Shown in pieces: positions 4,203 to 64,000 of a stretch of DNA of 64,000 nt. Source of the DNA: Heteroscytonema crispum UTEX LB 1556 (GTDB taxonomy: Bacteria; Cyanobacteriota; Cyanobacteriia; Cyanobacteriales; Nostocaceae); assembly GCA_044006015.1 (NCBI GenBank), contig JBIPDF010000002.1, forward strand, positions 24,666 to 88,665, written 5' to 3'. The stretch's first letter is position 1, and each line of letters starts with the position of its first letter. The notes below the pieces were generated by a model. It made no database searches. It was not told where the DNA came from and saw only the letters and a list, made by a program, of their open reading frames with translations. The position numbers and the translations under genes were made by a program.

Positions 4203-4205
4203 AGA

Positions 4206-4488: not shown

Positions 4489-4489
4489 A

Positions 4490-6238
4490 CTATTCAACTT
4501 GTTGTCGGTGATTCGCGGCTTGATTTAACAACGATTCGGCAAATGCGATCGCTTCTTGGGCTGACTTTCCACCTGCTAATTGCGCTAGTTCGTCCCGCCG
4601 TGTGGTTAAATTCTCTAATGCCGTAACTCGCACTACGGTTCGCTCTTCGCTGTTACCATTGTTCTCTTTTTTACCTTTGAATTGATTGATTGTTTGCTTA
4701 TCTACCCTAAAATGGCGGTCTGCCATTGCTGCTACTAAGGGTTGGTGTGTAACACACAATACCTGTTGCTGTTGGCTGAGTTGGTGTAATTTTTCGGCGA
4801 TCGCTTGGGCGACTCTCCCGGAAACGCCAACGTCAATTTCATCAAATACCATTGTCCCCGCTGCGTCTGCTTGGTAAAAACAAGCTTTCAACGCTAGCAA
4901 AAAGCGACTCATTTCTCCACCCGAAGCAATTTCTGTTAAAGGTTGCATTGGTTCCCCTGGATTGGGGCTAAACATAAAAGTAATTTTGTCTGCACCTGCA
5001 GCGGTTGGCAATGTCGGTACAATTTCCACTTGAAATTGGACTTTTTCCATCGCTAGGGGCTTGAGTTCTGCAATCAATCGTGCTTCTAAATTTGCAGCAG
5101 TTTTTTGACGCAATTTTGTTAACTGGTTGCAAGCTTGGGTAAGTTTTTCCAAAGACGCTTTTTCTTGCTGTTCCAGACTTTCAATAGATAGTTCGCTGTC
5201 GTTAAGTTCGGTTAATTCCCCTTGGATGCGCTGGTAATAAGCGATCGCTTCTTGTAATGTCGGACCATATTTGCGACAAATTTGCTTTAATTCCCGAATC
5301 CGTTCTTCTACCTCTTCCAAACGCTGCGGATCGGCTTCTAAAGCTTCCCCATAAGCATTAATTTGCCTCGCCACTTCCACGATTGTGGCTTGGGCATCCC
5401 GCACCAAGTCCAACATCGGCTGCAACTGGGTATCATATTCTACCATATCAGTTAATGTCGCCTCGCTGTCTCCCAGCAAGTCAGCAGCGGCTGCGGCTTC
5501 ATTATCATTTTGATACAAAGCCTGATAGATTTTGTAACTCATCTGTTGCAATTCAACCACATGATTGAGACGCTGGCGTTCTTGTTCTAGCAATTCCAAT
5601 TCATTCGGTTCGTTGAGATTTGCGCCTCCCAACTCCTGCACTTGATAAGTTAATAAATCAAATTGTTGCAAACGTTCCCGTTCCGAAGTCCGGCGTTTTT
5701 CTAAAACCAGATGTGCTTGTTGATAAGCACTAAAAGCAGTAGCGATGAATTGACGCTTTTGCAGCTGCGAATCACCGCCGTAAACATCCAACCAATCGCG
5801 GACTTGTGCAGACTGTCCCACCAATACAGTTTGACCTTGGGCGGTAATTTCCACCAAGCGATCGCGCAAACCGTTCATCAACTGTCGATTTACCAACACG
5901 CCATTTACACGCGAACGGCTGCGGATATTACTGACAGTAGCGGTAATTTCGCGACTGATGACTGCGGAATTATCATCAATTAAATCAATTTCCTGTTCGG
6001 TCAACCAAGCAGCTAAGGAACGGTTAATAGTGAACGTAGCTTCCACCATAGCGCGACTCGTCCCCGTGCGAATCACGCGACTAGAGACTTTACCACCCAA
6101 AGCCGCATCAATCGCATCCAGGATAATCGACTTACCCGCACCGGTTTCCCCTGTCAAGACATTCAGTCCAGCACCAAATTCTAATTCTAGCTGGTCAATG
6201 AGGGCAAAATTTTCAATTCGCAGGCAGAGCAACATCAA
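4490..6238 (-). CDS. recN: DNA repair protein RecN
   Basis: [49 protein letters not shown] at the N-terminus (Walker A), a long coiled-coil middle, and a C-terminal [13 protein letters not shown] signature typical of RecN/SMC-like proteins. Confidence 0.9.
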
Positions 6239-6429
6239 ACAAAATTCTCCGTTAAGGCAGACGCCGGATAGTTACAACTTCAAAGACACTAGAGATAACG
6301 AATGAGCAAAGTTCAATACCAACTACCATTGAAAAAACTGAGGAGTCGAAATTGAGTGTAACAAACCTAGTTTAGTTTGGCTGCGATAACCATTGGTAAA
6401 GGCGATAGCTTTCTTAATTTAGAACAAAG

Positions 6430-6600
6430 TTAGTGGTTGGTGGTGAAGCGCGTACTGCGGTCGGGTTTCCCTCCTAGTACTGGTTCTCCCGAAGGGTCGT
6501 TGGTTGGTGGTTGGTGGTGAAGCGCGTACTGCGGTCGGGTTTCCCTCCTAGTACTGGTTCTCCCGAAGGGTCGTTGGTTGGTGGTTGGTGGTGAAGCGCG
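6430..6600. repeat. Tandem repeat, unit ~68 bp, about 2.4 copies (ggttggtggtgaagcgcgtactgcggtcgggtttccctcctagtactggttctcccgaagggtcgtt)
   Basis: Direct repetition is visible at 6430-6499, 6500-6569 and 6570-6600. The reverse complement of the unit recurs in degenerate form at 51110-51410. Confidence 0.8.
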
Positions 6601-15847: not shown

Positions 15848-16966
15848 TTGATAGCAGCAATTATGGCGATAATTTCCTCAAAAAAACAGCCTCAAGAACC
15901 CAGCAAAGAACCCAAGCAGCGCCGGGAGTCTCCCCCAAAACCACCTTCTGGGGAAAACCTTTTACAAGCTGAAGCTGCTGTTGATGAACAAGATAAGCAG
16001 GAAGAAAGTATTCGACCGCAGCGATTTGAGGATTATATTGGGCAAAAAGATTTAAAGGATGTACTCTCAATCGCCATCTCTGCAGCCAAGTCTCGCGGTG
16101 AAGTCCTGGATCACTTGCTGCTGTACGGTCCTCCCGGTTTGGGCAAGACCACAATGGCAATGATTTTAGCATCTGAAATGGGCGTTAACTTCAAAATTAC
16201 CAGTGCGCCAGCCCTAGAACGTCCGCGTGATATTGTCGGGTTGCTGGTGAATTTGAAGCCGGGAGATATTTTATTTATTGATGAGATTCATCGCTTATCA
16301 CGAATGACAGAAGAAATCCTCTATCCGGCGATGGAAGATTATCGTTTAGATATTACAGTTGGCAAAGGTTCCAGCGCTCGCATTCGGAGTTTGCCGCTGT
16401 CTAAGTATACTTTGGTGGGAGCTACAACCCGCGCCGGTGCTTTGACTTCACCATTACGCGATCGCTTTGGTTTAATTCAAAAACTGCGATTTTACGAAGT
16501 TAACGAACTCAGCCAAATTGTATTGCGAACCGCCCAGTTACTCCAAACTCCCATTGCCGAAGATGGTGCTGCAGAAATTGCCCGTCGGGCGCGAGGAACG
16601 CCACGCATAGCAAACAGGCTACTTAAAAGAGTGCGTGATTATGCGGAGGTAAAAAAGTCGGGGGAGATTACTGAAGTTGCTGCATCTGAAGCATTGCAGC
16701 TATTTCAAGTAGACCCTTGTGGCTTGGATTGGACAGACCGCAAAATGTTGAGTGTAATAATTGAACATTTTAATGGCGGTCCCGTGGGATTGGAAACCAT
16801 AGCGGCGGCGACGGGAGAAGATACGCAAACGATAGAAGAAGTGTATGAACCATATCTCATGCAAATAGGCTATTTAAGTCGGACTCCGCGCGGTCGGGTA
16901 GCGACACCTGCAGCTTACAAGCATATGGGTTTTAAGCCGCCTAACGAGCAGTTGTCATTGTTGTAA
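15848..16966 (+). CDS. ruvB: Holliday junction branch-migration ATPase RuvB
   Basis: [24 protein letters not shown] (Walker A), [10 protein letters not shown] (Walker B), and a C-terminal winged-helix region. The N-terminal extension may begin at a later Met. Confidence 0.9.
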
Positions 16967-16983
16967 TCAGGAAGAGGAGAGGG

Positions 16984-17180
16984 GGCAATGGGCAATGGGC
17001 AATGGGCAATGGGCAATGGGCAATGGGCAATGGGCAATGGGCAATGGGCAATGGGGCAGAAGGAATGAACTGCCTACCTCACTTCACTACCCATGAAAAT
17101 CCGTCTTTCCCATCCCTAATACCCAATGCCCCATGCCCGATGCCCAATGCCCAATGCCCGATGCCCAATGCCCAATGCCT
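16984..17180. repeat. Inverted pair of STRR arrays: GGGCAAT x~10, then CCCAATG/CCCGATG heptamers after a ~65 bp spacer
   Basis: Read directly. It lies between the ruvB stop (16966) and the start of the TPR gene (17228). ORF 17002..17184 is a repeat translation. Confidence 0.9.
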
Positions 17181-25910: not shown

Positions 25911-26030
25911 GGGAATTGGGCATTAGACATAGGCGTGGAAAAGATGTAGAGACGAGAAATTTCGCGTCTCTACAAAGAATTTCGGGCAACGCAGAATTAA
26001 TTTCCACTCCTATGTCTATTGGGCATTGGA
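25911..26030. repeat. Nested palindromic element: outer inverted arms (gacataggcgtggaaa / tttccactcctatgtc) enclosing the hairpin gtagagacgagaaatttcgcgtctctac
   Basis: Read directly. The inner gtagagacg...cgtctctac hairpin motif recurs at 11744, 56165 and 59801. Confidence 0.5.
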
Positions 26031-26510: not shown

Positions 26511-27350
26511 ATGACAGGGAAAATAGATCTACCATATTTTGACGATTTATTAGAAAGTTTCCGCCAAGGGAACACCGAAGTGATTAAAAGCTTTGGTCTT
26601 CACGTACATTGGGGCTACTGGGAAAATCCCGCAAAGGCTGACGGTTCCATAGATGACTTTGTGGCTTCAGCAGAAAATTTAGCGCAACGAGTATGCAATG
26701 CAGGTGGCGCAGGGAATGGACTCTCGATTCTTGATTGTGGTTGTGGTTTTGGTGGGACGATCGCCCTTTTAAGCGATCGCTTTTCTGATATGCAGTTAGT
26801 AGGCTTAAATATTGACCCCCGTCAACTAGCTAGGGCTAGAGAACAAGTTAAACCTCGCAATAATAATTCCATTGAATTTGTTGAAGCAGATGCTTGTCAG
26901 CTACCATTTGCCGATAATTCTTTTGACGTTGTTATGGCTGTTGAGTGCATTTTCCATTTTCCCAGCCGCCAGCGCTTTTTCCAAGAAGCATGGCGAGTGC
27001 TGAAGCCAGGTGGAAAACTTGCCATCTGCGACTTTGTACCCTTAGAAATTTTGAGTCCTTTCTTAAAACTTGCGGCTACTTTACTGCAACCCTTTGTTGG
27101 TAACACTTACGGTTCTGTTGATAGTAGTTTTACCCTAGCTTCTTATCGCCATCTGGCACAAACTACAGGATTTAAATCAATCTTAGAAGAAGATATCACT
27201 GTCAACACTCTACCAACTTATCCGGTGTTGCGGCGACTTCAGCGTCAGGGGGGAAACCCACAATCAGAAACCTCAACAGCTGTTACTGAATGGATTAGTC
27301 GTTTGGGGTTAATGCGTTATTTGATTTTGTCCTACAGCAAGAATAATTAA
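26511..27350 (+). CDS. Class I SAM-dependent methyltransferase
   Basis: LDCGCGFGGTIALL (motif I, GxGxG), then acidic motif II and motif III regions. 279 aa. Confidence 0.75.
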   Translation: MTGKIDLPYFDDLLESFRQGNTEVIKSFGLHVHWGYWENPAKADGSIDDFVASAENLAQRVCNAGGAGNGLSILDCGCGFGGTIALLSDRFSDMQLVGLNIDPRQLARAREQVKPRNNNSIEFVEADACQLPFADNSFDVVMAVECIFHFPSRQRFFQEAWRVLKPGGKLAICDFVPLEILSPFLKLAATLLQPFVGNTYGSVDSSFTLASYRHLAQTTGFKSILEEDITVNTLPTYPVLRRLQRQGGNPQSETSTAVTEWISRLGLMRYLILSYSKNN

Positions 27351-27354
27351 AAAA

Positions 27355-27478
27355 GGGGCAAGGGGCAATGGGCAATGGGCAATGGGCAATGGGCAAAGAG
27401 TGCTGTGAAATAACAAACAGGTTCTTCTCTATACCCAATGCCCAATGCCCGATGCCCGATGCCCAATGCCCGATGCCC
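27355..27478. repeat. Inverted pair of STRR arrays (GGGCAAT x5 ... CCCAATG/CCCGATG x6) between convergent genes
   Basis: Read directly. It is flanked by the stops at 27350 (+) and 27481 (-). Confidence 0.9.
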
Positions 27479-28742: not shown

Positions 28743-30548
28743 TTAGCTTCCCTGCTGTTCTACAAGCTGCCAAAGTTTGATAGTCTTGTCCCTGCTGCCA
28801 CTAGCAATCACTCGTGCAACAGGGCTAACAGCAACGGCTGACACACAGTCTATATGACCGCAAAGAGTAGCAATTTCTTCTAAATTACTTACCTTCCATA
28901 ATTTGACTGTCTTGTCCCAACTCCCACTAATCAGTGTTTCCCCATCCGCACTAAAAGCCACTGTCACCACCGACCAGGAATGGCATAAAAGTGTACGAAT
29001 CAACTGACCAGTGTTTAACTCCCACAATTTAATAGTGTTATCTTCGCTACCCGTAACCAACATTTTCCCATCGGGACTGAAAGCGACTGTTAAAACCGCC
29101 CATGCATGACCTAAAAAGGTATAATCTGGGCGGTTTTTAACTTTTTCAGCTAATTTCCACAAGCGAATTGTTCGATCAAAACTAGCGCTGGCTAAAAATT
29201 TTCCATCGGGACTAAATGCTACTGAACTTACTTGTAATTGATGTCCTGTTAGGGTGCAAATTTCTTTATTTGTATTTACATCCCAAAGTTTGATTGTTTT
29301 ATCCCAGCTACCACTGGCTAGCAGCTTTCCATCTGGACTGAAAGCCACTGATTTTACAGCGTGTGAATGTCCTTTGAGGGTGAAGATTTCCTCAAAGGTG
29401 TTGAGATTCCACAATTTGATAGTTTTATCATCGCTAGCGCTGGCGAGAATTTTACCATCCGGACTGAAAGCCACTGATTTTACAGCTTGGGAATGTCCCA
29501 TGAGAGTGCATAATATTTTTTTAGTGTTTAAATCCCATAATGCGATCGCTTTATTATCATGACCGCTAGCTAAAATCCCCCCAAACCCCCCTTCATCAGG
29601 CGGGCTAGGGGGGATCGGACCGATCGCGATTGAATTCACGCCACTCAACATGGCAGAATGTTCGTTGAGGGTGTGGGAACAACGCCATTGCGAGTTGGTA
29701 GTTGGTAGTTGGTAGTTGGTAGTTGACGGGTGATAACTGTAAAAATCAGGATTAATCGCTTGTATAACTTCCGAGGCTGATTGAAAGCGACGGTTAACAG
29801 CATTTTGCAGCAACTTGTCCAGGATTTTTGTTAGGCGATCGCTTACTTTAGTTGTGAGATAATCTTGCCAAGCCCAGCCATTATTCGCAACATCAAACAA
29901 ATCAAAGGGCGGAATGTGAGTAAGTAAATAAATGCAAGTTACACCCAAGCTATAAATATCACTTGCCAATACGGGTTTACCCTTAGTTAGTTCGGGCGCG
30001 GCATACTCCGGACTGCCGATAATGCTTGTGTTAGTTAGCGGTTCAATTTCTGAAGTTAATTGAGCAGTAGCAAAATTTACCAAAAACAAATCTATCCTGT
30101 CCCCCCTTTTTAAAAGGGGATTTAAAGGAGATTTCAAAATAATATTTTCGGGTTTAATATTGCAGTGAATAACATTGCAATCATGAATAAACTTGAGAAC
30201 AGGCAAAACATACTCTAAAAGTTGCCAAATTTGACTTTCACTAAAAGCACCCTCCTCCTCAATCAAACTTGCCAAACTGGAACCTTCAATAAACTCCTGC
30301 ACCAAATAGAAATACTCTTCCTCTGGAAAAAAATCTAAAAATGCCGGAATTTGTGGATGCTTTCCCAATTCTGCTAAAACCTGTGCCTTTCGTTGAAAAC
30401 TTTCAAAACTTTGCTTTTGCAGCGAAAATTGTTGAACCACACAAGAAACTCCCGGACATTTACCTTCATCCACAGCAAGAAAAGTTTTGTATAATCCCCC
30501 CTTACCAATTACTTCAACTAAACGATAACGTTCTTTTAAAACATTCAT
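28743..30548 (-). CDS. Ser/Thr protein kinase with C-terminal WD40 beta-propeller (7 repeats)
   Basis: N-terminal kinase (GKGGLYKTFLA..., HCNIKPENIIL, NFATAQ, GSPEYAAPE). The C-terminus has repeated GHSxAVxSVAFSPDGKxLASGSxDKTIKLW units. The linker contains an STRR-encoded QLPTTNYQLPTTNSQ. Confidence 0.9.
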   Translation of the reverse strand: MNVLKERYRLVEVIGKGGLYKTFLAVDEGKCPGVSCVVQQFSLQKQSFESFQRKAQVLAELGKHPQIPAFLDFFPEEEYFYLVQEFIEGSSLASLIEEEGAFSESQIWQLLEYVLPVLKFIHDCNVIHCNIKPENIILKSPLNPLLKRGDRIDLFLVNFATAQLTSEIEPLTNTSIIGSPEYAAPELTKGKPVLASDIYSLGVTCIYLLTHIPPFDLFDVANNGWAWQDYLTTKVSDRLTKILDKLLQNAVNRRFQSASEVIQAINPDFYSYHPSTTNYQLPTTNSQWRCSHTLNEHSAMLSGVNSIAIGPIPPSPPDEGGFGGILASGHDNKAIALWDLNTKKILCTLMGHSQAVKSVAFSPDGKILASASDDKTIKLWNLNTFEEIFTLKGHSHAVKSVAFSPDGKLLASGSWDKTIKLWDVNTNKEICTLTGHQLQVSSVAFSPDGKFLASASFDRTIRLWKLAEKVKNRPDYTFLGHAWAVLTVAFSPDGKMLVTGSEDNTIKLWELNTGQLIRTLLCHSWSVVTVAFSADGETLISGSWDKTVKLWKVSNLEEIATLCGHIDCVSAVAVSPVARVIASGSRDKTIKLWQLVEQQGS

Positions 30549-36001: not shown

Positions 36002-36384
36002 TAGTTTGGCAAGTCAAAATTGCCGAGTGAGGACTGGGAAAGGGGCAGGTGGGGCCCCCAGGGAGTGGGGATAAGGGGCAAGGGGGAAGGGGAAAGGGGA
36101 AAATATTAAACCGCAAAGTTTGCTTGTCAGACCGTTAGTAGTGCGTCAAGGTAATGCATGAGAATTTCTTCACAAGTTTCTCAAATTATTTGCGTATAAC
36201 TAAAAGTGTAGGGCGGGAAATCGCCAGCTACGCCAGATAGCACCTGCTACATCACCCAGTCAGATATTGTCTTTATTAGGACTTACGCAAAGCTCACGGC
36301 AATAAAGCGAGGAGTGAAAATCCACGCCGCTGTCTTGAATGCTGCGCTTGCGAGGTTTCCTCACAACACTTTTTGAGCTTTAAG

Positions 36385-52781: not shown

Positions 52782-53915
52782 TTATGCCTCTTGATTATTT
52801 ATCCTACTTATTTGGGTTCGGGAAAAATCAGTAGCCTTGGTGATGCGAATTCCTGTTGGGATAATGTATGCCACTTCCGGATAAAATTGCATCGGTGATT
52901 TTTCTGGTGCCCTAGCTACGGCGTCTGCTATCCGTAACTGGGTTGGTTCCATTTGCAATGCCATTATTAGACAATCAGTTTTGCCCCCTGCACCGGCGTG
53001 AGCAATTCCACGCAAACGACCCCAAACTAGAATATCTCCATCTGCGATTACGATACCACCTGGGTTTACATCTCCCAAGATAATTACAGTACCGGGATGG
53101 CGAATTTCTAATCCCGAACGTACTGTCATTTCGAGATAGAGGGCGTCTGCTAGGGGTGTGGGGGCGGTGGTAGATGCGGAACTCAAACTGGGTTCTTGCT
53201 GTAGTTGTTCTACAGAATACCCGGCTGAGACGGCTGCGATCGCGGTTTGGCGACGGCTGGTAGAAACTGATTTTAACTGGAGTTGGATTTCTCTCAAAGT
53301 TTCGGCAATTTCTTGTAACTGTCTGCCATCCAACAGGCGATCGCGTGCGATTAAATGTACCGTTGTGTTGGGTACAAAAAAGCGATCGCCTGCCAATAAT
53401 CGCAGTTTCATTTGTTGCCAAATCTCAGATAAACCGTATTCTGAGGCTGGTACTTGCGATTCTGTTGGTAATATTAATAACAGCTTTCCATCTTCACTTT
53501 TAATCTGAACTTGGATATTCGGATTCACCGCTTTTTCTGGTGGCGGCGTCTCGGTATCATCTCCACCCCATAGTATATAATTCGACTCTATATTATCCAG
53601 TGTTTCCGGATTTGAAGATGTAGAATTTGACTCTATATTATCCAGTGATTCCGAATTTGAATATGTAGAATGTGACTCGACATTCTGAAATGATTCAGGA
53701 TTTGAATGTAAAAATTGCAGGACAGAATCGACCTCTGTGTCGGGGAGAATAGAATTTGACTCGACATCATAAACAACAGAATTTGATTCTGCTACCTCAG
53801 AAACAGCAGAATTTGATTCTGCTGCATCAGAACCAGCAGAATTTGACTTCTTATCGGGGATAGCAGAATCGTAAGTCATGCAACACCAGCCAAAAGAACC
53901 GAAAACAGCAAGCAA
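52782..53915 (-). CDS. minC: Septum formation inhibitor MinC with a long repetitive N-terminal extension
   Basis: C-terminal beta-helix domain GTVIILGDVNPGGIVIADGDILVWGRLRGIAHAGAGG. The N-terminal ~110 aa are an ESNS/DNIESN-rich low-complexity stretch encoded by nucleotide tandem repeats (53560-53880). The true start is uncertain. Confidence 0.8.
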   Translation of the reverse strand: MLAVFGSFGWCCMTYDSAIPDKKSNSAGSDAAESNSAVSEVAESNSVVYDVESNSILPDTEVDSVLQFLHSNPESFQNVESHSTYSNSESLDNIESNSTSSNPETLDNIESNYILWGGDDTETPPPEKAVNPNIQVQIKSEDGKLLLILPTESQVPASEYGLSEIWQQMKLRLLAGDRFFVPNTTVHLIARDRLLDGRQLQEIAETLREIQLQLKSVSTSRRQTAIAAVSAGYSVEQLQQEPSLSSASTTAPTPLADALYLEMTVRSGLEIRHPGTVIILGDVNPGGIVIADGDILVWGRLRGIAHAGAGGKTDCLIMALQMEPTQLRIADAVARAPEKSPMQFYPEVAYIIPTGIRITKATDFSRTQISRINNQEA

Positions 53916-57469: not shown

Positions 57470-59074
57470 TTGAGTATGCAGAAAAAATCGATTTTGCTCG
57501 CAGAAAATTTAAGTTATGAACTCGCTTCCACTAAGACGTTATTTAAAGAAGTCAATATTAGTATTGAGGAAGCCGATCGCATTGCTTTAGTTGGCAATAA
57601 TGGTGTCGGCAAATCTACTCTTCTACGTATTATTGCAGGAAAAGAACGCCCCAAAACGGGTTCGGTGATAAATTATGGTGCTGTTTATTACTTACCGCAG
57701 ATTAGCACCATCAGGCAGGAAATCAAAGCAGATACGGTATTTGATTTTTTGAATTGCGTTTCTGATGAATGGTGGAAAATTGAAGAAATTTTAGATGTCA
57801 AATTTCATACAACACTTGATTTATCGCTAGCGATCGCCAACCTCAGTGGTGGGGAACTGACAAAATTATTTTTAGCGATCGGTTTATCGCAAGAACCTAA
57901 TATTCTGCTGTTGGATGAACCGACGAATCACATGGATTATTTGGCGTTGGAGAGTTTGAGCCAGTTTCTCAATGATTTTGATGGAGCGTTTGTAATTGTC
58001 TCCCACAAACCGTTTTTCTTGGATTCAGTTGTAAATACTACTTGGGAACTTACGCAAGAAGGAGTGAGGGTGTATGGGGGCAATTTTTCATTCTATCGCG
58101 AACAGAAGCAGATAGAGCGTTCTGCAAAAATGCGATCGCACGAAGTTGCAAGAAAGGAACTCAAACGCACTCAAGAAGCAGCATTGCAGGAACAACAACG
58201 AGCTGCGAAATCTCGCAAAAAAGGTCGCGAACTCGCGCCTAGCATTCCTAAAATTGTCGCTGGGGCGATGAAACGAAAAGCAGAGGTGACCGCAGGAATT
58301 GCCAAACAAAAACATGAAGCCGCTGTAGAGAAAGCGACACAAAAATTTACAGAAACAAAGCTTAAAACGACTAAGGCGACAAGTATTCAACTAGAGGAGA
58401 AGAGTCAAAAACGGAGAAATCTAATTGATATTCAGAATGCAAATTTAAGGGTAGGAGAACGGCTGCTAATTGAGAAGATGCAACTGCATATATCTTCGGG
58501 AGATAGAGTTGCGATTTCTGGTGCTAACGGTTCCGGTAAATCGAGTTTAGCTAAAGCAATTTTGGGGATGGATAATAGCCCTGCATTTCTCGAATCGGGT
58601 GAAGTTTTGCTTGCACCAGGAATGAAAGTTGTGTATCTCGACCAAAATTATGAATTGGTAAAGCGAGATAAAACGATTTTGGAGAATATGCAACTTGCCA
58701 ATCCCCATCTGCAATACCAACTAATTAGACAGCAGTTGGGACATTTTTTATTTTTTAACGATGATGTCTTCAAAAGAACATCAGTACTGAGTGGGGGAGA
58801 ATTAGCAAGATTAGCGATCGCTCTTATTAGTATTTCAGAAATAGACCTGCTAATTCTCGATGAACCAAGCAATAATTTAGACATTGAAACCGTTGAACAA
58901 ATAATCGAAGCAGTTAATGAATATCAGGGTGCGCTGTGGGTAATTTCTCACGATTTAGATTTTCTTTGCCGAATTAATATTACCCAATCCTTCAAATTGA
59001 AGAATCAAGCCTTGGAAACAACCAAGTATCTACCAAATGAACAGGAGGAATACTATCAAGAATTACTTATGTAA
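57470..59074 (+). CDS. ABC-F family ATPase (tandem ABC domains, no TMD)
   Basis: Two Walker A motifs (LVGNNGVGKST, ISGANGSGKSS) and two ABC signatures (LSGGELTKL, LSGGELARL). A charged linker RKELKRTQEAALQEQQRAAKSRKKGRE separates the halves. 534 aa. Confidence 0.85.
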   Translation: MSMQKKSILLAENLSYELASTKTLFKEVNISIEEADRIALVGNNGVGKSTLLRIIAGKERPKTGSVINYGAVYYLPQISTIRQEIKADTVFDFLNCVSDEWWKIEEILDVKFHTTLDLSLAIANLSGGELTKLFLAIGLSQEPNILLLDEPTNHMDYLALESLSQFLNDFDGAFVIVSHKPFFLDSVVNTTWELTQEGVRVYGGNFSFYREQKQIERSAKMRSHEVARKELKRTQEAALQEQQRAAKSRKKGRELAPSIPKIVAGAMKRKAEVTAGIAKQKHEAAVEKATQKFTETKLKTTKATSIQLEEKSQKRRNLIDIQNANLRVGERLLIEKMQLHISSGDRVAISGANGSGKSSLAKAILGMDNSPAFLESGEVLLAPGMKVVYLDQNYELVKRDKTILENMQLANPHLQYQLIRQQLGHFLFFNDDVFKRTSVLSGGELARLAIALISISEIDLLILDEPSNNLDIETVEQIIEAVNEYQGALWVISHDLDFLCRINITQSFKLKNQALETTKYLPNEQEEYYQELLM

Positions 59075-59181: not shown

Positions 59182-59778
59182 ATGAATACTCCAAATCTCA
59201 AGCCTTTAATTAGCAACAATTGGTTCAAGAGATTGGCTTGTGTTGTGGGAATTGCTGGTGCTACTACCCTCATCAGTGTTCCAGTCTTAGCCAAATTCTA
59301 TCCACGCTACGCTCTGTTTCAACCTTCGGCTTACAGCAGCTACCCCTATCGCAACTCCCAAAGCACCATTGCTGAAACCCTTGCACAGGATAAGGATGCT
59401 AAATATGTCAATCTGGTTTATGAATTGAAACAAGCCGGTCTTCTAGACACTTTGAATAAAGCGGGTACTAAATTCACAATTTTTGCCCCAACCGATAAAG
59501 CCTTTAATGCTTTACCAAAAGAAAGCTTCAAGAAGTACAGCGAGGGACAAAATCGGCAAAGAGTGTTGAAATATCATTTAGTTCCCGGTGTACTTAGTAA
59601 AGAAACCATAGATGCTGGGGCAGTAAAAACCCTTGAAGGTAGCGACATTAAAATCGCTATTAACGACGCTGAAGACACGGTTAAGCTGAATGATGCTCAT
59701 GGTAAGCATCCCTCTACTGTGACGAGCAATGGCGTGATTATTGAAGTTGACAAGGTACTTTTACCTCCTGACTTCTAA
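59182..59778 (+). CDS. Fasciclin (FAS1) domain protein, secreted
   Basis: Signal/TM segment at the N-terminus; FTIFAPTDKAFNALP (H1 box) ... VLKYHLVPG ... NGVIIEVDKVLLP (H2 box). Confidence 0.85.
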   Translation: MNTPNLKPLISNNWFKRLACVVGIAGATTLISVPVLAKFYPRYALFQPSAYSSYPYRNSQSTIAETLAQDKDAKYVNLVYELKQAGLLDTLNKAGTKFTIFAPTDKAFNALPKESFKKYSEGQNRQRVLKYHLVPGVLSKETIDAGAVKTLEGSDIKIAINDAEDTVKLNDAHGKHPSTVTSNGVIIEVDKVLLPPDF

Positions 59779-59800
59779 CTTTGAACCTGTAAAGATGACC

Positions 59801-59830
59801 TGTAGAGACGCAATATATCGCGTCTCTACA
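59801..59830 (+). terminator. Hairpin tgtagagacgc aatatat cgcgtctctaca, 23 nt after the fasciclin gene stop
   Basis: Perfect 10-bp stem; no strong U-tract follows. It belongs to the gtagagacg/cgtctctac hairpin family. Confidence 0.35.
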
Positions 59831-59970
59831 ATGAAAAAGGAAAAAGTAAGAAGAAATTTTTTTCCCCTTCGCACTTCGCAGTCGCCAATCTTCGGGAAAC
59901 CCTCCCGCAGCGCTGACTCACCTTTCCCCTTGCCCCTTATCCCCACGAAAGTGGGGGCCCCCCCTTTTCC

Positions 59971-62778
59971 TTATTGCCAATTTCCTACAAGAACAAACGG
60001 TGCCCAAAAATGGGGATGATTGTATTCCTTATCTTTCAAAAGGCTCAATTGTGCTTTTTGGAGTACTTGGGCTTTATTTAACTTCTCTTTTTTAGCTTGC
60101 TCTAACTGACGATATAATTCACCCATAATTTGGGCAGTACTTTTATCTTCCACAGCCCAAAGTGTCGCCAAAGTACTGCGAGTTCCAGCCCGCACCGCTA
60201 CTCCAGCCAGTCCTAAAGCAGCCCGGTTGTCTCCACTCGCTGTCTCGCAAGCGCTAAGAACCAATAATTCAATTGGTCTACCCTGATTTAGAGTATTATT
60301 TCGCAGTAAGTTGCCAAAATCTATCACATTAATTCGCTTATCCCAAGAAAGGATAAAAGTCTTTTCAGCTATAGAGCTAAACTGACCGTGGGTAGCTAAG
60401 TGAACTATCGGAAAACCAGAAGCATTAATCTCTTTTTTGAGTTCGCCGCTACTAAATTGGTCGTTGAGAATCTGTCGATAGGAAATTCCAGATTTCTCAA
60501 TTTGTTGAAGTTCTTCTTTGACAAACTTTAATGGCTTAAATTGCCCTTCAAATTCTTTAGGAACTTCGCTGAGTCCTGCTGTTAGCGCTCTTAAATTAAT
60601 ATCAGCGAGGGGTTTGGGATCGACTAGCTGCAAGCCGGAAGTTATGGCAAGTGCATACTTTTCTACGAGATATTTATTGCCATCATGAAGGATAGACATC
60701 GGGATATTTCGTAAGTCGCCATCCAGTACAAAAACCAAGTTTTTGACTTTACTTTTCTCCAATTCTGTTTCCAGCGGTTGAATCAGCCAGCTATATAACT
60801 TTTGGTATTGAGGCAAAAATCCCTCTACTAAACTGTCACGAGTTTTAAGAGAAGCTTGCACTTTTTGTACAGTACTCTCAAAATCTTGGCGCTTAATTCT
60901 TCGTGCTGGATAAAGGCTTAAAGGTTGATTGGGGAGGCTAAGAATAACCTCTAATCGGTCTGGTAGAAGAATTGGATAAATTACCGCCGCTGTTGGGTCT
61001 ATTTTATCAATTTGTTTGGGATTTGCTTCTACACAAGCTTGTCGAAAAAAGTTATTAAGTTCAGCTAATTGTAGAGATTCAATGACTGTACGAGCTTGGG
61101 TTAGTAGTTTTTGGGTTTTGTCGTTGTTTGCAGCTTTATTTTGATTTAAAGAAGCGACATATTGCAAGTCTAAATCAACTAACTCTCGGTAAATTGGTTC
61201 GACACTATCCCGAAAAGAAAACTGAAATTCTGGGTTATTCGCTACTAAATCGCCGCGTAATGATTGCAGGGCATTATAGGCTTTAGTGTAAGCAGCGATC
61301 GCATTCTCAATTTCTCCTTTATTTTTACCTATTCGTCCCAACTGCCAAAAGAATTGGTAAGCTACATCTGGGACTGCAAAATTAGAAGCTATAGCCAGAG
61401 ATTGTTTTGTAAATTCTTCTGCTTTAGACAAATCTTGCATCAGTCCAGATAGTTCGTACAGTCCGCCAAGATTTCCTAAAGCATAAGCTTCGGCTCGTTT
61501 ATCTCCCAAAGATTTAGCCTGTGCGGCTGCTTTATTTAAGATACCAGCGATATCGTTAAAAGTTGGTAATTGAGAATTAGCTTTGAGTTGAAAATTATCG
61601 GTTTTAGCTAATTTGACTAAACTTTGAGCAAAGTTGATTTGCTGGTATATCCCTGTACGACTGGGGGGCAAATTACTCAATTGAGAATTAAGCGATCGCC
61701 ATAATTCTGTAGCTTCTGATAATTTCTCTAATTTTAGCAATTGGCTGAGTTGATTTAGTTGTGCTTGCTGTCGCGTGGTTGGCGATGCAGACAGCTTTAC
61801 CACTTCGCTATAAGCGTCTAATGCTTGTTGTCCGTAATTCTCGCGCACGCGACGAATTCTTTCTTTTTCAGGTTCAGCTAAGACTTGCGCGGTGTTACCT
61901 AAACTTAAATAGATAGCAGCTAGTTCTTGAGGATAATTTAATTTTTTTGCCTGATTTAAACTGGCTGTCAAAATTATTTCTGATTGTCTTGGCTGACCTA
62001 CAAGTAATAGCAATTCTCCAAGACTTTTTAATTGCAATACTAAGGGTAAATCAGCAGGTTTATTTTCAACTTTCTGAAGTTTTTCTGTTAATTCTTCTGG
62101 AGTAAGTTTACTTAAATCTTGACAAGTTTTCACTCCCAGAATTTCTTGATTTAAATCTTCTAATAAAGTCTTGCAAGCACGGGGATAAAGACCCAAATCT
62201 TGCATTGCTTGGGCTTGGTTAATCTTGCTTTGGGTTAATTTTGCTCTTTCGCCAATTTGACTGTAGATTTTAGTAGATTGTTGCCAATTATCCAAAGCAT
62301 CAGCCGATTGTCCGATTTCACGCAGCAAATAACCTTGAATATCCAAACTTTGAGCTTGGATTTTGAGTTTTTCCTTGCTTTCTGGCTGAGTTTTGAGAAC
62401 TTCTAAACTGTCGGCGATCGCTTTTCTGGCTGGTTCCCACTCTCCCAACTTTTGATAAGTCAAACAGAGGTTGCTTAATGCCATTGCTTGGTTTAATTTA
62501 TCTCCTTGAGCGAAAAAAACCGTCGCTGCTAATTGCCAAGCTTTCGCCGCTTCTGCAAACTGTCCGGCGCGATATAGTTTGACAGCCTTGTCAATTGGCG
62601 GTTCGGAATTTTGTTGAACTTGGAGAATTGGGGTTGCGGAAGGAACCTTGGCGATCGCAGGCGAGATTGCAGAGACGATGAATAATAAAGCTGCGAGAAA
62701 AAACGGCGATCGCTTTCTATATATTCTCTTGAAAAGATTATTGAATCTCTGCCCAATTTCCTGCTGATTCTTTACCAT
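59971..62778 (-). CDS. TPR-repeat protein with C-terminal CHAT (caspase-like) domain
   Basis: N-terminal signal peptide. The ~600 aa of TPR-like helical repeats carry the yYxxALxxYqqAL pattern. The C-terminal CHAT has the His block PIVHLATHGQF and the Cys block LLVLSACETASGD. Confidence 0.85.
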   Translation of the reverse strand: MVKNQQEIGQRFNNLFKRIYRKRSPFFLAALLFIVSAISPAIAKVPSATPILQVQQNSEPPIDKAVKLYRAGQFAEAAKAWQLAATVFFAQGDKLNQAMALSNLCLTYQKLGEWEPARKAIADSLEVLKTQPESKEKLKIQAQSLDIQGYLLREIGQSADALDNWQQSTKIYSQIGERAKLTQSKINQAQAMQDLGLYPRACKTLLEDLNQEILGVKTCQDLSKLTPEELTEKLQKVENKPADLPLVLQLKSLGELLLLVGQPRQSEIILTASLNQAKKLNYPQELAAIYLSLGNTAQVLAEPEKERIRRVRENYGQQALDAYSEVVKLSASPTTRQQAQLNQLSQLLKLEKLSEATELWRSLNSQLSNLPPSRTGIYQQINFAQSLVKLAKTDNFQLKANSQLPTFNDIAGILNKAAAQAKSLGDKRAEAYALGNLGGLYELSGLMQDLSKAEEFTKQSLAIASNFAVPDVAYQFFWQLGRIGKNKGEIENAIAAYTKAYNALQSLRGDLVANNPEFQFSFRDSVEPIYRELVDLDLQYVASLNQNKAANNDKTQKLLTQARTVIESLQLAELNNFFRQACVEANPKQIDKIDPTAAVIYPILLPDRLEVILSLPNQPLSLYPARRIKRQDFESTVQKVQASLKTRDSLVEGFLPQYQKLYSWLIQPLETELEKSKVKNLVFVLDGDLRNIPMSILHDGNKYLVEKYALAITSGLQLVDPKPLADINLRALTAGLSEVPKEFEGQFKPLKFVKEELQQIEKSGISYRQILNDQFSSGELKKEINASGFPIVHLATHGQFSSIAEKTFILSWDKRINVIDFGNLLRNNTLNQGRPIELLVLSACETASGDNRAALGLAGVAVRAGTRSTLATLWAVEDKSTAQIMGELYRQLEQAKKEKLNKAQVLQKAQLSLLKDKEYNHPHFWAPFVLVGNWQ

Positions 62779-62986
62779 TTTTTCTTACTCTTGTCAAGAT
62801 ACGCAATATCATATCTGCTAAATTATCCATAATTCCGGAAAACCCCACCCCGCTTTGGCTACGCCAAAGTTCCCCTCCCCGCAAGCGGGGAGGGGTTAGG
62901 GGTGGGGTGCTGTTAACGTGGGTATTATGGGTCATCATCGAGGCTTGATATAGACGGTGTTTTTTGAACTTGAAATTTTGAATTAT

Positions 62987-64000
62987 TTAACGTGCCCCAC
63001 AAGCAGCAGATGTCTGCCAATAACGCTGGGATTCGCTGCTGGTGGGATTATAAGCTGTAAGTACCACCTCACCTTTATCATTCAATACCCATCCTTGGGC
63101 AGGCACAATTGGCTTTGAAACAGAAGCATTTTTCTTTATTCCCCCACTCCCCCCTTCCCCCACTCCCCCACTCCTCATAGCGACAGGCGAAACTAAATCA
63201 ACACGAGTATTGTCACTGCTGAGGGTTTCATTGGGTGATGGTGGCAAACCGCCGCGTCCAGTCACCACGAATTCATTTTTTGCACCTTGTTGGCAGGGAT
63301 TTTGTGCCACCTGCTGTTTGGGATCGATGACAGTTTCTGGTAATTCAACTAATCCCCTACTGGGGTCGGTTTCTGGGGTTTGAATACTCACAGTACCGTC
63401 TAGAGATGGTTTTTGTGCTGAAAAGGCAGTGATATCATTAGTAGATAAATTTTTCGGGTCTAAATCTTTAACACCCAGTCTTTCAAGTTCAGCCCGAGTG
63501 CGTTGCACTAGTCCAAAAATGCCAGCAGAATTAATTGCAATCTTTCCTCCCTGACCGCCGGAAGCATCGGCTGTAATATCACTATTTTCTAAGGGAAAGG
63601 CAATAATTAAGCCATCAGGAGCATTAATTGTGATGTTACCGCCATTACCATTTGCTTTGGCGGATATTTGACTGTTGCGACGTAGCAGCAATAATTTAGC
63701 AACGTCTAGTCTCAGGTTGCCACCATTGCTAGATGTAGCAGTTGCAATTATCACACTTTGATTATCAAGTCGAATGGTATCTGCTACAACATTCAAAGTT
63801 CCAGCATTGCCAGAAGCATTAGCTTTACTTTCAACTCGCAATCTTCCATTGTTAAGATTTATAGTTTTTGCTGTCACATTCAGCGTTCCTGCATTGCCTT
63901 TGCCCTCGGTTGATGTTTCAATTCCACTATTGTTATTGATTGCTAAAGATTCGGCATTAATGTTGATTTCTCCCGCGCTACCTTTGCCAGAAGTTTTTGT
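62987..64000 (-). CDS. Filamentous-haemagglutinin-like beta-helix repeat protein, C-terminal part; the N-terminus lies beyond the window end
   Basis: Repeated GNAGTLNV..A.TI.L.N / GGNI.INA beta-helix rungs. The reading frame stays open from 63877 to the window end (TKTSGKGSAGEININAESLAI...). Confidence 0.7.
   Translation of the reverse strand, partial: TKTSGKGSAGEININAESLAINNNSGIETSTEGKGNAGTLNVTAKTINLNNGRLRVESKANASGNAGTLNVVADTIRLDNQSVIIATATSSNGGNLRLDVAKLLLLRRNSQISAKANGNGGNITINAPDGLIIAFPLENSDITADASGGQGGKIAINSAGIFGLVQRTRAELERLGVKDLDPKNLSTNDITAFSAQKPSLDGTVSIQTPETDPSRGLVELPETVIDPKQQVAQNPCQQGAKNEFVVTGRGGLPPSPNETLSSDNTRVDLVSPVAMRSGGVGEGGSGGIKKNASVSKPIVPAQGWVLNDKGEVVLTAYNPTSSESQRYWQTSAACGAR

Follow-up and report, generated by a model that had tools for sequence, protein, structure and literature searches.

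Type Vb (two-partner) secretion systems such as FhaB/FhaC, HMW1/HMW1B and ShlA/ShlB combine a TpsA exoprotein and a TpsB transporter. The prodomain of FhaB spans about 1200 residues, and the Bordetella proteases acting on it are serine proteases encoded outside the operon. The C-terminal disulfide loop of HMW1 is short. LapG, which acts on CdrA and whose gene lies elsewhere in the genome, has a transglutaminase-like fold (DUF920) and is under the control of LapD and c-di-GMP. Outside the type Vb systems, the scattered cargo of the T9SS shares a C-terminal signal, which is removed by the PorU sortase, a clan-CD cysteine peptidase that is part of the secretion machinery. In Bordetella, the C-terminal part of FhaB is kept in the periplasm and removed by proteolysis during maturation, and in HMW1 and HxuA a C-terminal disulfide loop locks the protein in its TpsB (PMC5422565). 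For CdrA/CdrB of Pseudomonas aeruginosa, LapG is described as a periplasmic cysteine protease that cuts the periplasmic TpsA tail, thereby freeing the adhesin from the surface (PMC5422565; see also PMC4694147).

Among TPR-CHAT proteins, DdvA is periplasmic and provides a structural precedent (PMC11506125). HetF, a cyanobacterial CHAT protease, is active and cleaves PatU3 after Arg117 (PMC9457339). No paper in the searchable literature connects the CHAT domain with two-partner secretion, TpsA or ShlB, and no description of a TpsB/TpsA/TPR-CHAT operon layout was found there. The original prediction for the locus analysed here held that cyanobacterial pairs of this kind "are thought to form" secreted or surface modules, a statement for which the searchable literature offers no backing.

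Results

A predicted two-partner secretion operon at the end of the window

We analysed 64,000 nucleotides (the window) of Heteroscytonema crispum UTEX LB 1556. Judged from its sequence, the end of the window contains the 3' part of a predicted type Vb secretion operon of three genes in the order tpsB, tpsA, TPR-CHAT, which runs past the window end at 64000. Accession and locus-tag numbers track the gene order along the window.

62987..64000, minus strand: 3' third of tpsA, the last 337 codons and the stop of a 1028-aa TpsA exoprotein
63371..64000, minus strand: beta-helix rungs and C-terminal cap (partial-ORF residues 1-210; AlphaFold2 pLDDT 93-98)
59971..62778, minus strand: TPR-CHAT gene (935 aa; MFH7024838.1)

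The tpsA frame is open from 64000 to its stop at 62987-62989 (ORF reading) and is followed, after a spacer of 208 nt, by the TPR-CHAT gene. The window covers the C-terminal third of TpsA alone (337 of 1028 residues), and the signal peptide, the TPS domain and the majority of the repeats lie beyond 64000. Residues 692-1028 of the full-length protein, MFH7024840.1 (P0241; 1028 aa), are 100% identical to the 337 residues in the window. This protein carries a signal peptide of the Sec type, and Pfam places a TPS secretion domain at residues 47-298 (PF05860, E 2e-60). On the same contig of 847,429 bp, the accession that follows, MFH7024841.1 (P0406), is a ShlB/FhaC/HecB transporter with POTRA_2, POTRA, ShlB and Omp85 domains; by these consecutive accessions, the predicted tpsB gene adjoins tpsA. 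Because the full-length TpsA has both a signal peptide and a TPS domain and TpsB comes next, the extension beyond 64000 bears out the TPS domain and the ShlB/FhaC-type transporter that had been predicted to lie past the window.

The original prediction had also placed a partial ORF of FHA-type rungs (GNAGTLNV, GGNITINA and GGKIAINS) upstream of the CHAT gene on the same strand, and these rungs are present. The 337-residue partial ORF has no Pfam match of its own, so that the label "FHA-type" stands on its homologues and its structural model. The homologues, up to E 4e-83, carry the source names filamentous hemagglutinin, S-layer family protein and large exoprotein, and AlphaFold2 builds residues 1-210 as a beta-helix with regular strand pairs. 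Foldseek searches with this beta-helix returned non-significant beta-helix matches only, for example to the secretion domains of HMW1 and EtpA and to pectate lyases.

A conserved tail at the C-terminus of TpsA

The TpsAs of related CHAT loci all end in a conserved tail of about 125 residues, which is newly recognised here and undescribed before.

62990..63364, minus strand: C-terminal tail of TpsA (partial-ORF residues 213-337; alignments A1 and A2)
63293..63295, minus strand: Cys236 codon, the first conserved tail Cys, invariant in 81 sequences
63248..63259, minus strand: GRGG motif (residues 248-251), its Arg a candidate P1 residue for CHAT cleavage
62999..63001, minus strand: Cys334 codon, the second conserved tail Cys, 3 residues before the C-terminus and invariant in 81 sequences

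Its motifs are, in order, DPSRGLVELPETV.DP, QNPC, F.VTGRGGLP.SPNE, a variable linker, VPAQGW.LN.KGEVVLTAY, and a Cys 3-4 residues from the end; nothing in Pfam or the PDB matched the tail. It was found on 4570 cluster representatives and is C-terminal in all 150 of the best 150 among these 4570. The tail is conserved across genera while the repeats diverge: between the TpsA in the window and that of the closest relative, L125, most tail residues are identical and the aligned repeats are far more divergent (identity over the full 315-residue alignment, 55%). Of 89 tails, 86 have exactly two Cys, 77 have their last Cys at a distance of 3-4 residues from the C-terminus, and 85 contain G[RK]GG. 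Among 81 sequences, G248 and G251 never vary, and R249 and G250 each reach at least 90% conservation. AlphaFold2 gave the tail a pLDDT of 36-69, extended or disordered save one small hairpin, and because of this low pLDDT the tail resembles an extended peptide of the kind that TPR domains bind.

A TPR-CHAT protein with a predicted export signal and an intact His-Cys dyad

62647..62778, minus strand: N-terminal residues 1-44 of the CHAT protein, an export signal or signal-anchor as read from the sequence
61048..62604, minus strand: TPR-like helical solenoid (residues 59-577), all-helical repeats in the model
59974..60987, minus strand: CHAT caspase-like domain (residues 598-935), with the His797 codon at 60388-60390 and the Cys844 codon at 60247-60249

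The CHAT domain was identified by Pfam with high significance (PF12770, residues 658-933, E 3e-55; 188 bits, with the cutoff at 24). TPR_12 (residues 68-129), TPR_2 and TPR_1 also matched. As had been predicted, the 935-aa protein contains the HLATHG and SACET blocks, which start at residues 793 and 842, and its His797/Cys844 dyad is intact. At least 97% of 46 orthologues retain H793, H797 and C844, none of which varies among 62 database homologues, and conservation along the protein is highest in residues 826-880, around Cys844. The AlphaFold2 model (pLDDT 82.5, pTM 0.81) found Csx29/TPR-CHAT (E 3e-14), DdvA (E 7e-13) and separase as its top Foldseek matches, the alpha/beta fold of the CHAT domain matching the CHAT domains of Craspase, DdvA and separase. 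The TPR solenoid, presumed to be the substrate-binding part, gave weak matches to LGN/Pins TPRs in the PDB.

Residues 1-44 comprise a basic n-region, the hydrophobic segment FFLAALLFIVSAISPAIA and an AxA-type site before K, and this n-region/hydrophobic/AxA-like layout recurs in all CHAT orthologues whose N-terminus is complete, suggesting export by a signal peptide or membrane anchor to the periplasm or thylakoid lumen. C202, C219 and C582 are additional conserved cysteines. On one metagenomic contig (L091), a truncated tail is fused in frame to the mature CHAT N-terminus.

Gene linkage across cyanobacteria

The TpsB/TpsA/TPR-CHAT layout is widespread in cyanobacteria. One to four tail-bearing TpsA genes lie directly upstream of CHAT on the same strand in 40 of 42 assessable CHAT-seeded loci, and TpsB, its identity verified by Pfam, lies upstream in 17 of 22 assessable loci. 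The 40 loci span Nostocales, Chroococcidiopsidales, Pleurocapsales and Chroococcales, with differing other flanks. The full order TpsB, TpsA, CHAT repeats in dozens of cyanobacterial loci. The median gap is about 155 nt, with 4-nt start/stop overlaps at two loci (L033 and L035). In L125, with an 85% identical CHAT protein, three TpsA genes precede CHAT and the flanks are as in the window. Among the metagenome loci seeded with the tail, those with TpsB all had CHAT as well, wherever downstream sequence was available, and about 24 of 41 assessable tail-seeded loci had neither CHAT nor TpsB nearby. In many genomes, this tail is also found on numerous "orphan" TpsA paralogues that have no adjacent TpsB or CHAT.

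The spacer and the downstream neighbour

62843..62908, minus strand: nested, GC-rich hairpin with UUUU after it, a lineage-specific insertion in the spacer between tpsA and CHAT
62738-62938: annotated 66-aa ORF MFH7024839.1, overlying the spacer hairpin
59800..59831, no strand assigned: palindromic hairpin (TGTAGAGACGCG..CGCGTCTCTACA) separating CHAT from the convergently oriented fasciclin gene
59182..59778, plus strand: Fasciclin (FAS1) domain protein MFH7024837.1, with a signal peptide (Pfam Fasciclin, E 4.5e-26)

The spacer RNA folds with -69.5 kcal/mol (z = -4.8), and none of 200 shuffled sequences was equally stable. Its palindrome occurs once in the window, has no match in Rfam and is missing from L125, where the spacer is 68 nt. 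The hairpin is possibly an attenuator or terminator; because such a strong hairpin with a U-run lies between tpsA and CHAT, their co-transcription in H. crispum may be attenuated. The ORF annotated over it is probably spurious. The hairpin at 59800..59831, with a 14-bp stem in the terminator scan and a second copy at 25945-25979, looks like a terminator.

The fasciclin gene lies directly downstream of CHAT in 18 CHAT-seeded loci, all closer relatives (at least 56% CHAT identity), and is kept even where other flanks change; the fasciclin protein may be functionally linked to CHAT. In a subfamily of 43-45% CHAT identity, the genes after CHAT are always DUF928 and one for a membrane protein (CHASE2 plus AAA_35 or CHAT). 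These two sets of partners are mutually exclusive, and TpsA and TpsB alone are common to both subfamilies. On Nostoc plasmids, sigma-70, DUF1822, CHASE2 and DUF928 genes stand alongside CHAT and FHA-N genes. CHAT genes are very numerous in Nostocales, in varied contexts.

Discussion

The locus shares with the type Vb systems the Sec signal, TPS domain and beta-helix repeats of TpsA and an adjacently encoded POTRA_2/ShlB-type TpsB. It differs from them by a third conserved gene, encoding a TPR-CHAT cysteine protease, by one to four tandem TpsA genes with many orphan paralogues, and by the tail. We somewhat favour the reading that in this type Vb operon the periplasmic TPR-CHAT protease matures or releases TpsA by acting on the tail. 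Sec would carry TpsA over the inner membrane, and TpsA would thread N-terminus first through TpsB and fold as a surface beta-helix. Its tail would stay on the periplasmic side, where the Cys pair could close a disulfide stopper comparable to those that anchor HMW1 and HxuA at their C-termini. The TPR groove of the periplasmic TPR-CHAT protein would hold the extended tail and the protease would cut it, possibly at GRGG after the near-invariant Arg, splitting TGR from GGLP. The conserved tail, the exported CHAT protein and the Arg-specific HetF provide circumstantial support for such processing. Not every CHAT protease is Arg-specific: Csx29 reportedly cuts Csx30 after Met or Leu. If Cys236 and Cys334 form a disulfide, GRGG is located inside the loop, and a cut there alone would therefore not free the passenger.

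The proposed logic is the same as in CdrA/LapG, with a putative cleavage here. The protease differs, being a clan-CD CHAT protein with a TPR solenoid encoded in the operon, and no LapD-like partner was seen within the window. As in FhaB processing by SphB1 and other proteases, a periplasmic TpsA C-terminus would be lost by proteolysis, although the tail, at about 125 residues, is far from the size of the FhaB prodomain. HMW1 and HxuA likewise have two conserved Cys at the far C-terminus of TpsA, with the disulfide of the cyanobacterial tail being putative; they show no sequence similarity to this tail, which adds the GRGGLP and PAQGW motifs, and its Cys spacing (about 98 residues in the window, varying with the linker) contrasts with the short HMW1 loop. 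The T9SS and PorU would offer a parallel, with one C-terminal signal on numerous dispersed cargo proteins and a clan-CD peptidase to remove it. The C-terminal domain of the T9SS is a folded beta-sandwich, whereas the tail is predicted to be unstructured, and the secretion system differs; a transpeptidase role for CHAT would be pure speculation. Csx29 (Craspase), separase, HetF and DdvA share the two-part architecture, the fold (Foldseek E 3e-14 to 1e-11) and the His-Cys dyad, but only 11-13% sequence identity. Set against the known TPR-CHATs, the cyanobacterial protein has TPS partners and lacks Cas7-11, an anti-sigma domain and a cytoplasmic location.

The CHAT protein might instead belong to the operon but act on TpsB, on itself or on a small secreted neighbour (fasciclin or DUF928), or serve an envelope-signal relay, which we consider unlikely. 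Fasciclin is a conserved convergent neighbour in the CHAT subfamily of the window, and because DUF928 and the CHASE2 protein always trail CHAT in the distant subfamily, the substrate there could be one of them; the gene company on the Nostoc plasmids points the same way. Since the tail is common on genes without CHAT nearby, it could equally be a TpsB- or envelope-interaction module. Against a substrate other than the tail, these neighbours exclude each other and only TpsA and TpsB are shared by both subfamilies. For DdvA, an anti-sigma factor with a periplasmic TPR-CHAT part, a sensor-protease relay has been proposed (PMC11506125), but the protein described here has no cytoplasmic signalling domain, just a short basic N-terminus.

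We regard it as improbable that the TPR-CHAT protein is mainly a non-proteolytic periplasmic chaperone or docking scaffold that passes unfolded TpsA to TpsB. TpsA must cross the periplasm unfolded in type Vb secretion, the solenoid spans about 520 residues, and a chaperone in common would fit a genome with several TpsA clients. However, neither the His-Cys dyad nor the blocks around it vary among 62 homologues, and this invariance, with the peak of conservation at residues 826-880, argues for retained catalysis.

There is little likelihood that the locus is a conflict or defence module, with TpsA sensing contact or phage, or serving as a decoy receptor, and CHAT as a death or abortive-infection effector, or with CDI-like competition. 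CHAT proteases are type III-E CRISPR effectors, DdvA controls a defence island, the TpsA repeats diverge fast in numerous paralogues, and a phage-resistant Nostoc 7120 substrain with reduced phage adsorption has a mutated protein with an FHA N-terminal domain (PMC10811720). However, PADLOC gave no significant family match, no cas, NTPase or toxin/immunity genes were seen at the locus, the C-terminus is conserved and not polymorphic, the opposite of CDI toxins, and the predicted export of the CHAT protein would therefore leave it without access to cytoplasmic targets. Adjacency of unrelated neighbours without functional meaning, conceivable given the abundance of CHAT genes in Nostocales, is very improbable against an order and strand kept over four orders while the flanks vary, and against gene pairs that overlap.

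Under the favoured reading of tail processing by the TPR-CHAT protease, cleavage of the tail would mature, release or turn over the TpsA surface protein. Because many tail-bearing TpsAs are orphans without a local TpsB or CHAT, one TpsB/CHAT pair would serve them in trans.

Gene content of the locus

The ORF map of the window showed two minus-strand ORFs arranged head to tail, with a partial ORF for the FHA-type beta-helix exoprotein TpsA upstream and the gene of the TPR-CHAT protein downstream. The window holds the last third of tpsA and the CHAT gene as its share of the operon.

Open reading frames at the tpsA-CHAT junction
59971-62778, minus strand: CHAT ORF, 935 aa
64000 (open) to the stop codon at 62987-62989, minus strand: partial TpsA ORF, 337 residues
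62738-62938, minus strand: 66-aa hypothetical protein MFH7024839.1 (ACHBN1_05420), a GenBank ORF over the spacer hairpin that overlaps the CHAT start

The original prediction had described caspase-like His and Cys blocks next to FHA-type beta-helix rungs, and both were found: HLATHG begins at residue 793 and SACET at residue 842 of the CHAT protein, and the rungs lie within the 337 residues of the upstream frame. The CHAT domain (Pfam PF12770) spans residues 658-933 (E 3e-55, 188 bits vs. a cutoff of 24), with TPR repeats detected by Pfam near the N-terminus. The partial TpsA ORF alone gave no match in Pfam or NCBIfam. Its hundreds of cyanobacterial homologues (best E 4e-83) are named filamentous hemagglutinin, S-layer family protein, or large exoprotein by their sources.

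The C-terminal 137 residues, used as the query of an exhaustive search, led to the full-length TpsA of 1028 aa (P0241), which matches the window ORF at 100% identity over all 337 residues and corresponds to NCBI MFH7024840.1 from the Heteroscytonema crispum UTEX LB 1556 MAG, encoded on an 847,429-bp contig. Outside the part covered by the window, TpsA has a Sec-type presequence ending in ...INTAQA, followed by QEVSSDGT, and a TPS domain (PF05860) at residues 47-298 (E 2e-60, 205 bits vs. a cutoff of 33.5). The next accession on the same contig, MFH7024841.1 (P0406), is a ShlB/FhaC/HecB protein of 591 aa with POTRA_2, POTRA, ShlB, and Omp85 domains. We took this adjacency from the accession order, which follows the gene order along the window according to exact look-ups of the window proteins.

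Accession endings (MFH7024...) in gene order
...831: MinD
...833: sugar kinase
...834: 220-aa protein (ACHBN1_05395)
...837: fasciclin
...838: CHAT
...839: 66-aa ORF across the spacer hairpin (ACHBN1_05420)
...840: TpsA

A TPS domain and a ShlB/FhaC-type transporter had been expected beyond the window, and the lack of either was to count against the prediction; both exist, as PF05860 in P0241 and as MFH7024841.1, which adjoins TpsA by accession. Because of this TPS domain and the ShlB-type protein next in accession order, the locus is, as judged from sequence, tpsB - tpsA - CHAT. It has the attributes of a type Vb system: a Sec presequence and a TPS domain in the full-length TpsA, a beta-helix passenger in the model, and, by accession order, a cognate POTRA and Omp85/ShlB protein beside tpsA. 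By analogy, TpsA would be exported to the surface or the medium in a TpsB-dependent manner.

Conservation of the arrangement

A CHAT-seeded scan with one genome per species yielded 48 loci from Nostocales, Chroococcidiopsis, Pleurocapsales, Chroococcus, and Aphanothece. In 40 of the 42 assessable loci, the ORF maps placed CHAT immediately after a co-directional tandem of one to four TpsA genes; in 17 of the 22 loci with enough sequence, this tandem is itself preceded on that strand by an ORF of ~570-660 aa. Pfam assigned POTRA_2 and ShlB domains to this ORF and TPS domains to the long ORFs. Between tpsA and CHAT, the shortest distance is a 4-nt overlap (loci L033 and L035), insertions exceed 2 kb at the other extreme, and the median gap is ~155 nt. 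In the closest relative, L125, whose CHAT protein is 85% identical, three TPS-domain genes are followed by CHAT, fasciclin, a 220-aa gene, a sugar kinase, and MinCDE; this flank is identical in layout to that of the window.

The secreted fasciclin protein (FAS1; 59182-59778, plus strand) is encoded convergently to CHAT and is kept across genera though other flanks vary; it may be a fourth functional partner. The window has a complete ABC-F ATPase gene (57470-59074, plus strand), and at its position in L125 (13672-14058) only a 128-aa product with a weak ABC_tran match is called; the exact ABC-F sequence of the window was absent from the protein collection searched. P0234, a 1548-aa protein in which a TPS and a CHAT domain are combined, could be taken for a fusion, a reading that we set aside. 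A read-through gene call seems likelier because its apparent match, L027, has separate TpsA and CHAT ORFs ~950 nt apart.

Loci with more distant CHAT proteins of 43-45% identity (L028-L035, L039, L057, L068, L103, L115, and L127; e.g. L029 12862-16468) also have genes, on either strand, for a DUF928 protein and for a membrane protein that joins CHASE2 to AAA_35 or to a further CHAT domain, and in most of them TpsB and TpsA precede CHAT. In L127, from a Nostoc flagelliforme plasmid, a DUF1822 gene is added, the FHA-N gene is oppositely oriented, and no TpsB is listed. A plasmid region of PCC 7120 pairs a sigma-70 factor with DUF1822. This larger CHAT/DUF928/CHASE2 cluster appears undescribed. 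On pCC7120alpha of Nostoc sp. PCC 7120 (L126, 342063-353678), a CHAT paralogue of 42% identity lies near a 688-aa protein with an FHA-N-terminal domain, accompanied by HlyD, a peptidase-domain ABC transporter, a PPIase, and a PPC-domain protein, with no ShlB; this locus is a possible route to genetics in a tractable organism.

The CHAT protein

H793, H797, and C844 are kept in at least 97% of the 46 CHAT orthologues from the fetched loci and are invariant in 62 database homologues. The AlphaFold2 model (pLDDT 82.5, pTM 0.81) consists of a helical solenoid (residues 59-577) and an alpha/beta domain (598-935). Foldseek against the PDB retrieved Csx29, the TPR-CHAT protein of the type III-E Craspase, as the best match (E 3e-14), then the periplasmic TPR-CHAT domain of DdvA, a Myxococcus anti-sigma factor (E 7e-13), and then separase, each with a probability of 1.00; a PDB sequence search gave weak TPR matches only. 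Sequence threshold, His-Cys dyad, and predicted fold together place the protein among the CHAT peptidases (clan CD, separase-like). HetF, the founding cyanobacterial CHAT protease, cuts PatU3 after Arg117 (PMC9457339). It is the only cyanobacterial precedent for proteolysis by a CHAT protein; that of the window is a putative protease.

All orthologues with a complete N-terminus start with a basic stretch, a hydrophobic segment of 15-20 residues, and an AxA-like site; in the window protein, the segment reads ...RKRSPFFLAALLFIVSAISPAIA, followed by K. Such an N-terminus has the makeup of a signal peptide or signal anchor, and the TPR-CHAT body should therefore face the periplasm, with the thylakoid lumen as the alternative compartment. 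A periplasmic TPR-CHAT protein has a precedent in DdvA (PMC11506125). Further cysteines conserved in the orthologues, C202, C219, and C582, fit an oxidising compartment.

The presequences of CHAT and TpsA are alike in this lineage (MV.NQ...Q.F..L.K.IY.KR, then the hydrophobic segment), as seen at 62700-62778 on the minus strand of the window, in residues 1-45 of P0241, and at 2686 and 10001 of L125. We rejected ..IYxKR.. as an extended signal shared by TpsA and CHAT, as it occurs in only 4 of 60 sequences elsewhere.

The C-terminal tail of TpsA

Residues 1-210 of the partial TpsA were modelled by AlphaFold2, from the window fragment, as a regular right-handed beta-helix (pLDDT 93-98). Foldseek of this C-terminal model against the PDB returned beta-helix matches, none significant. 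Residues 213-337 form a tail that, by alignment, is common to all TpsAs of the CHAT-linked loci. In order along the tail come ...DITA.S....G.V..NTP..DPSRGLVELPETV.DP..QIAQNPC and ..G..EF.(V/I)TGRGGLP..PNE.LSSD..RV.LV.P, then a variable Ser/Thr-rich linker, and after it (I/V)VPAQGW..N.KG.VVLTAY.PT and a last Cys 3-4 residues before the end. Across 81 sequences, C236, C334, G248, and G251 never vary, and conservation reaches at least 90% at R249 and G250. Since the tail was modelled with a pLDDT of 36-69 and a short hairpin only, it looks like an extended peptide with short conserved motifs. It has no family entry, with no matches in Pfam, NCBIfam, or the PDB.

Tail carriers number 4570 cluster representatives (50% identity) at E <= 1e-3 and 1821 at E <= 1e-10, and the match reaches the protein C-terminus in all top 150 representatives. 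Between the window and L125, the tail residues are mostly identical and the aligned repeats far more divergent, with 55% identity for the 315-residue alignment as a whole.

TpsAs whose genes have no CHAT neighbour carry the tail as well. We used a tail-seeded metagenome scan for the context of TpsA: TpsA was followed by CHAT in 17 loci, and neither CHAT nor TpsB was found in ~24 loci with enough flank. These orphans (among them L058, L061, L067, L071, L075, L084, L085, L088, L089, L093, L097, L098, L108, and L112) neighbour housekeeping genes such as GT4 glycosyltransferases, PGK, COX1, and NFACT. The assemblies JAESFI and JAESGJ contain eight to ten tail loci each, with CHAT beside TpsA only in L081 and L080, respectively. 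Orphan tails are indistinguishable from CHAT-linked ones; counting both, 86 of 89 tails have exactly two Cys and 85 have G[RK]GG. We therefore rejected a tail specific to CHAT-linked TpsAs, and the claim that it exists for CHAT alone is weakened. In the tail-seeded loci with downstream sequence available, TpsB was found only alongside CHAT. Our reading of these data is that each operon supplies a single TpsB/CHAT machine to numerous TpsA clients.

Spacer and repeats in the window

The 208-nt spacer between tpsA and CHAT contains a GC-rich nested hairpin (~62843-62908) followed by UUUU, with a predicted folding energy of -69.5 kcal/mol (z = -4.8). The hairpin is unique within the window, had no match in Rfam, and is absent from L125, where the gap is 68 nt. 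It is most simply a small insertion and may attenuate read-through; MFH7024839.1 is probably a spurious call on the inserted repeat. The palindrome TCTTGACAAGA upstream of the CHAT start was rejected as a conserved operator, being common only to the window and its closest relative.

Another palindromic element, TGTAGAGACG...CGTCTCTACA, has two copies (59801-59835 and 25945-25979), and the first, in the intergenic region where CHAT and fasciclin converge, resembles a bidirectional terminator. The heptamer GGGCAAT, or its complement, is arrayed at several intergenic sites (4187-4509, 16950-17177, 27323-27424, and 36059-36124), and these arrays look like typical Nostocales short tandem repeats. 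MinC (52782-53915, minus strand) carries a long N-terminal extension of tandem repeats ahead of its conserved C-terminal domain, with 45-nt and 30-nt units at 53576-53710 and 53764-53823 encoding the peptides ESNS.. and D(N/T)IESN... A near-perfect 74-nt tandem duplication (99% identity) lies at 6429-6576 and four 126-nt tandem repeats at 28854-29492.

Discussion

In established type Vb secretion, TpsA is exported by Sec, its TPS domain is recognised by the POTRA domains of TpsB, and the protein is threaded outward (PMC5422565). The TpsA described here would follow this route, and its tail might remain in the periplasm. C236 and C334 may close a stopper loop there, as in the C-terminal disulfide anchors of HMW1 and HxuA (PMC5422565), which show no sequence similarity to the tail. 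The exported CHAT protein could then bind the extended tail with its TPR solenoid and cut it with the dyad. Because HetF cuts after Arg, the near-invariant Arg that ends TGR, just ahead of GGLP, is the P1 candidate. Such a cut might mature, release, or turn over surface TpsA, as LapG does with CdrA in a releasing cut that sets a precedent for tail cleavage (PMC5422565). We consider this mechanism plausible by analogy. It has a geometric weakness: GRGG lies within the putative C236-C334 loop, and if that disulfide forms, freeing TpsA would take either cleavage N-terminal to C236 or a reduced disulfide. In a single 3.1-kb metagenome contig (JAAUXX010029722.1; L091, 2300-3139), a truncated tail is fused in frame to the mature CHAT N-terminus; the tail ends after ...GEVMLTSY without the terminal Cys, and the CHAT part lacks a signal peptide. 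A natural deletion or fusion, or else an assembly artefact, could account for it, and it is compatible with TpsA and CHAT in one compartment.

Instead of cutting the tail, the CHAT protein may target a different protein of the envelope or be a signalling protease. The conserved convergent fasciclin gene in this CHAT subfamily would suit such a role, as would the DUF928 and CHASE2 (with AAA_35 or CHAT) proteins added in the subfamily of 43-45% identity and the Nostoc plasmids on which sigma-70, DUF1822, CHASE2, and DUF928 genes stand together with CHAT and an FHA-N gene. Chance adjacency of CHAT and TpsA is disfavoured because the arrangement is conserved across loci, and a pure chaperone is unlikely because the His-Cys dyad is invariant. 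A defence or CDI-like module lacks support, with no significant PADLOC match and a conserved rather than polymorphic C-terminus, and the mutation in an FHA-N-terminal-domain protein of a phage-resistant Nostoc 7120 substrain with reduced phage adsorption (PMC10811720), which could be quoted in its favour, suggests that such proteins are surface exposed.

The locus also differs from known systems with related parts. Craspase (Csx29) works in a cytoplasmic setting with Cas7-11/gRAMP and Csx30/Csx31, whereas the neighbours here are tpsA and fasciclin and the CHAT protein carries an export signal. LapG is a DUF920, transglutaminase-like protease paired with the c-di-GMP receptor LapD; the protease here is CHAT by Pfam, with no match to another family apart from the TPR repeats, and no LapD-like partner was seen in the window. 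The system may work like LapG/LapD without belonging to that family. Unlike CdiA/CdiB/CdiI, with a polymorphic C-terminal toxin, a pretoxin motif, and an immunity gene, TpsA has a C-terminus conserved across paralogues and genera, and the downstream gene encodes CHAT instead of a small immunity protein.

TpsA, TpsB, and CHAT are ordinary members of known families, and public annotation already names each generically. In the literature searched, nothing relevant linked the CHAT domain with two-partner secretion, TpsA, ShlB, DUF928, or CHASE2, and DUF928 itself came up in one unrelated paper. No description was found there of the combination, a type Vb system whose operon encodes an exported clan-CD protease and whose TpsA family shares a C-terminal tail. 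Two-partner secretion is regarded as a minimal two-protein pathway. At these loci, from several cyanobacterial orders, the third gene is almost always that of a caspase-like protease, and a very large TpsA family bears a conserved, undescribed C-terminal tail.

More speculatively, and with less than even odds, the tail might be a family-wide C-terminal sorting or processing signal and the operon-encoded periplasmic TPR-CHAT protein its dedicated processing enzyme. The signal would then stand on thousands of cyanobacterial TpsAs, roughly a dozen orphan paralogues in each genome among them, with CHAT as a protease or even a sortase-like transpeptidase. If so, this would be a three-component type V secretion following the logic of a C-terminal signal plus a clan-CD peptidase, the same as in the T9SS with PorU, and the first function assigned to an exported CHAT protease.

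If CHAT does not process the tail, the locus is a correctly annotated, ordinary TPS operon. If it does, the two would make a compact, testable protease-substrate pair, and multicellular cyanobacteria, with their many orphan CHAT proteases, would have one with an assigned substrate and compartment. Tail processing would also explain the display, release, or turnover of many beta-helix surface proteins in filamentous cyanobacteria, proteins that matter for adhesion, biofilms, symbiosis, and phage adsorption.
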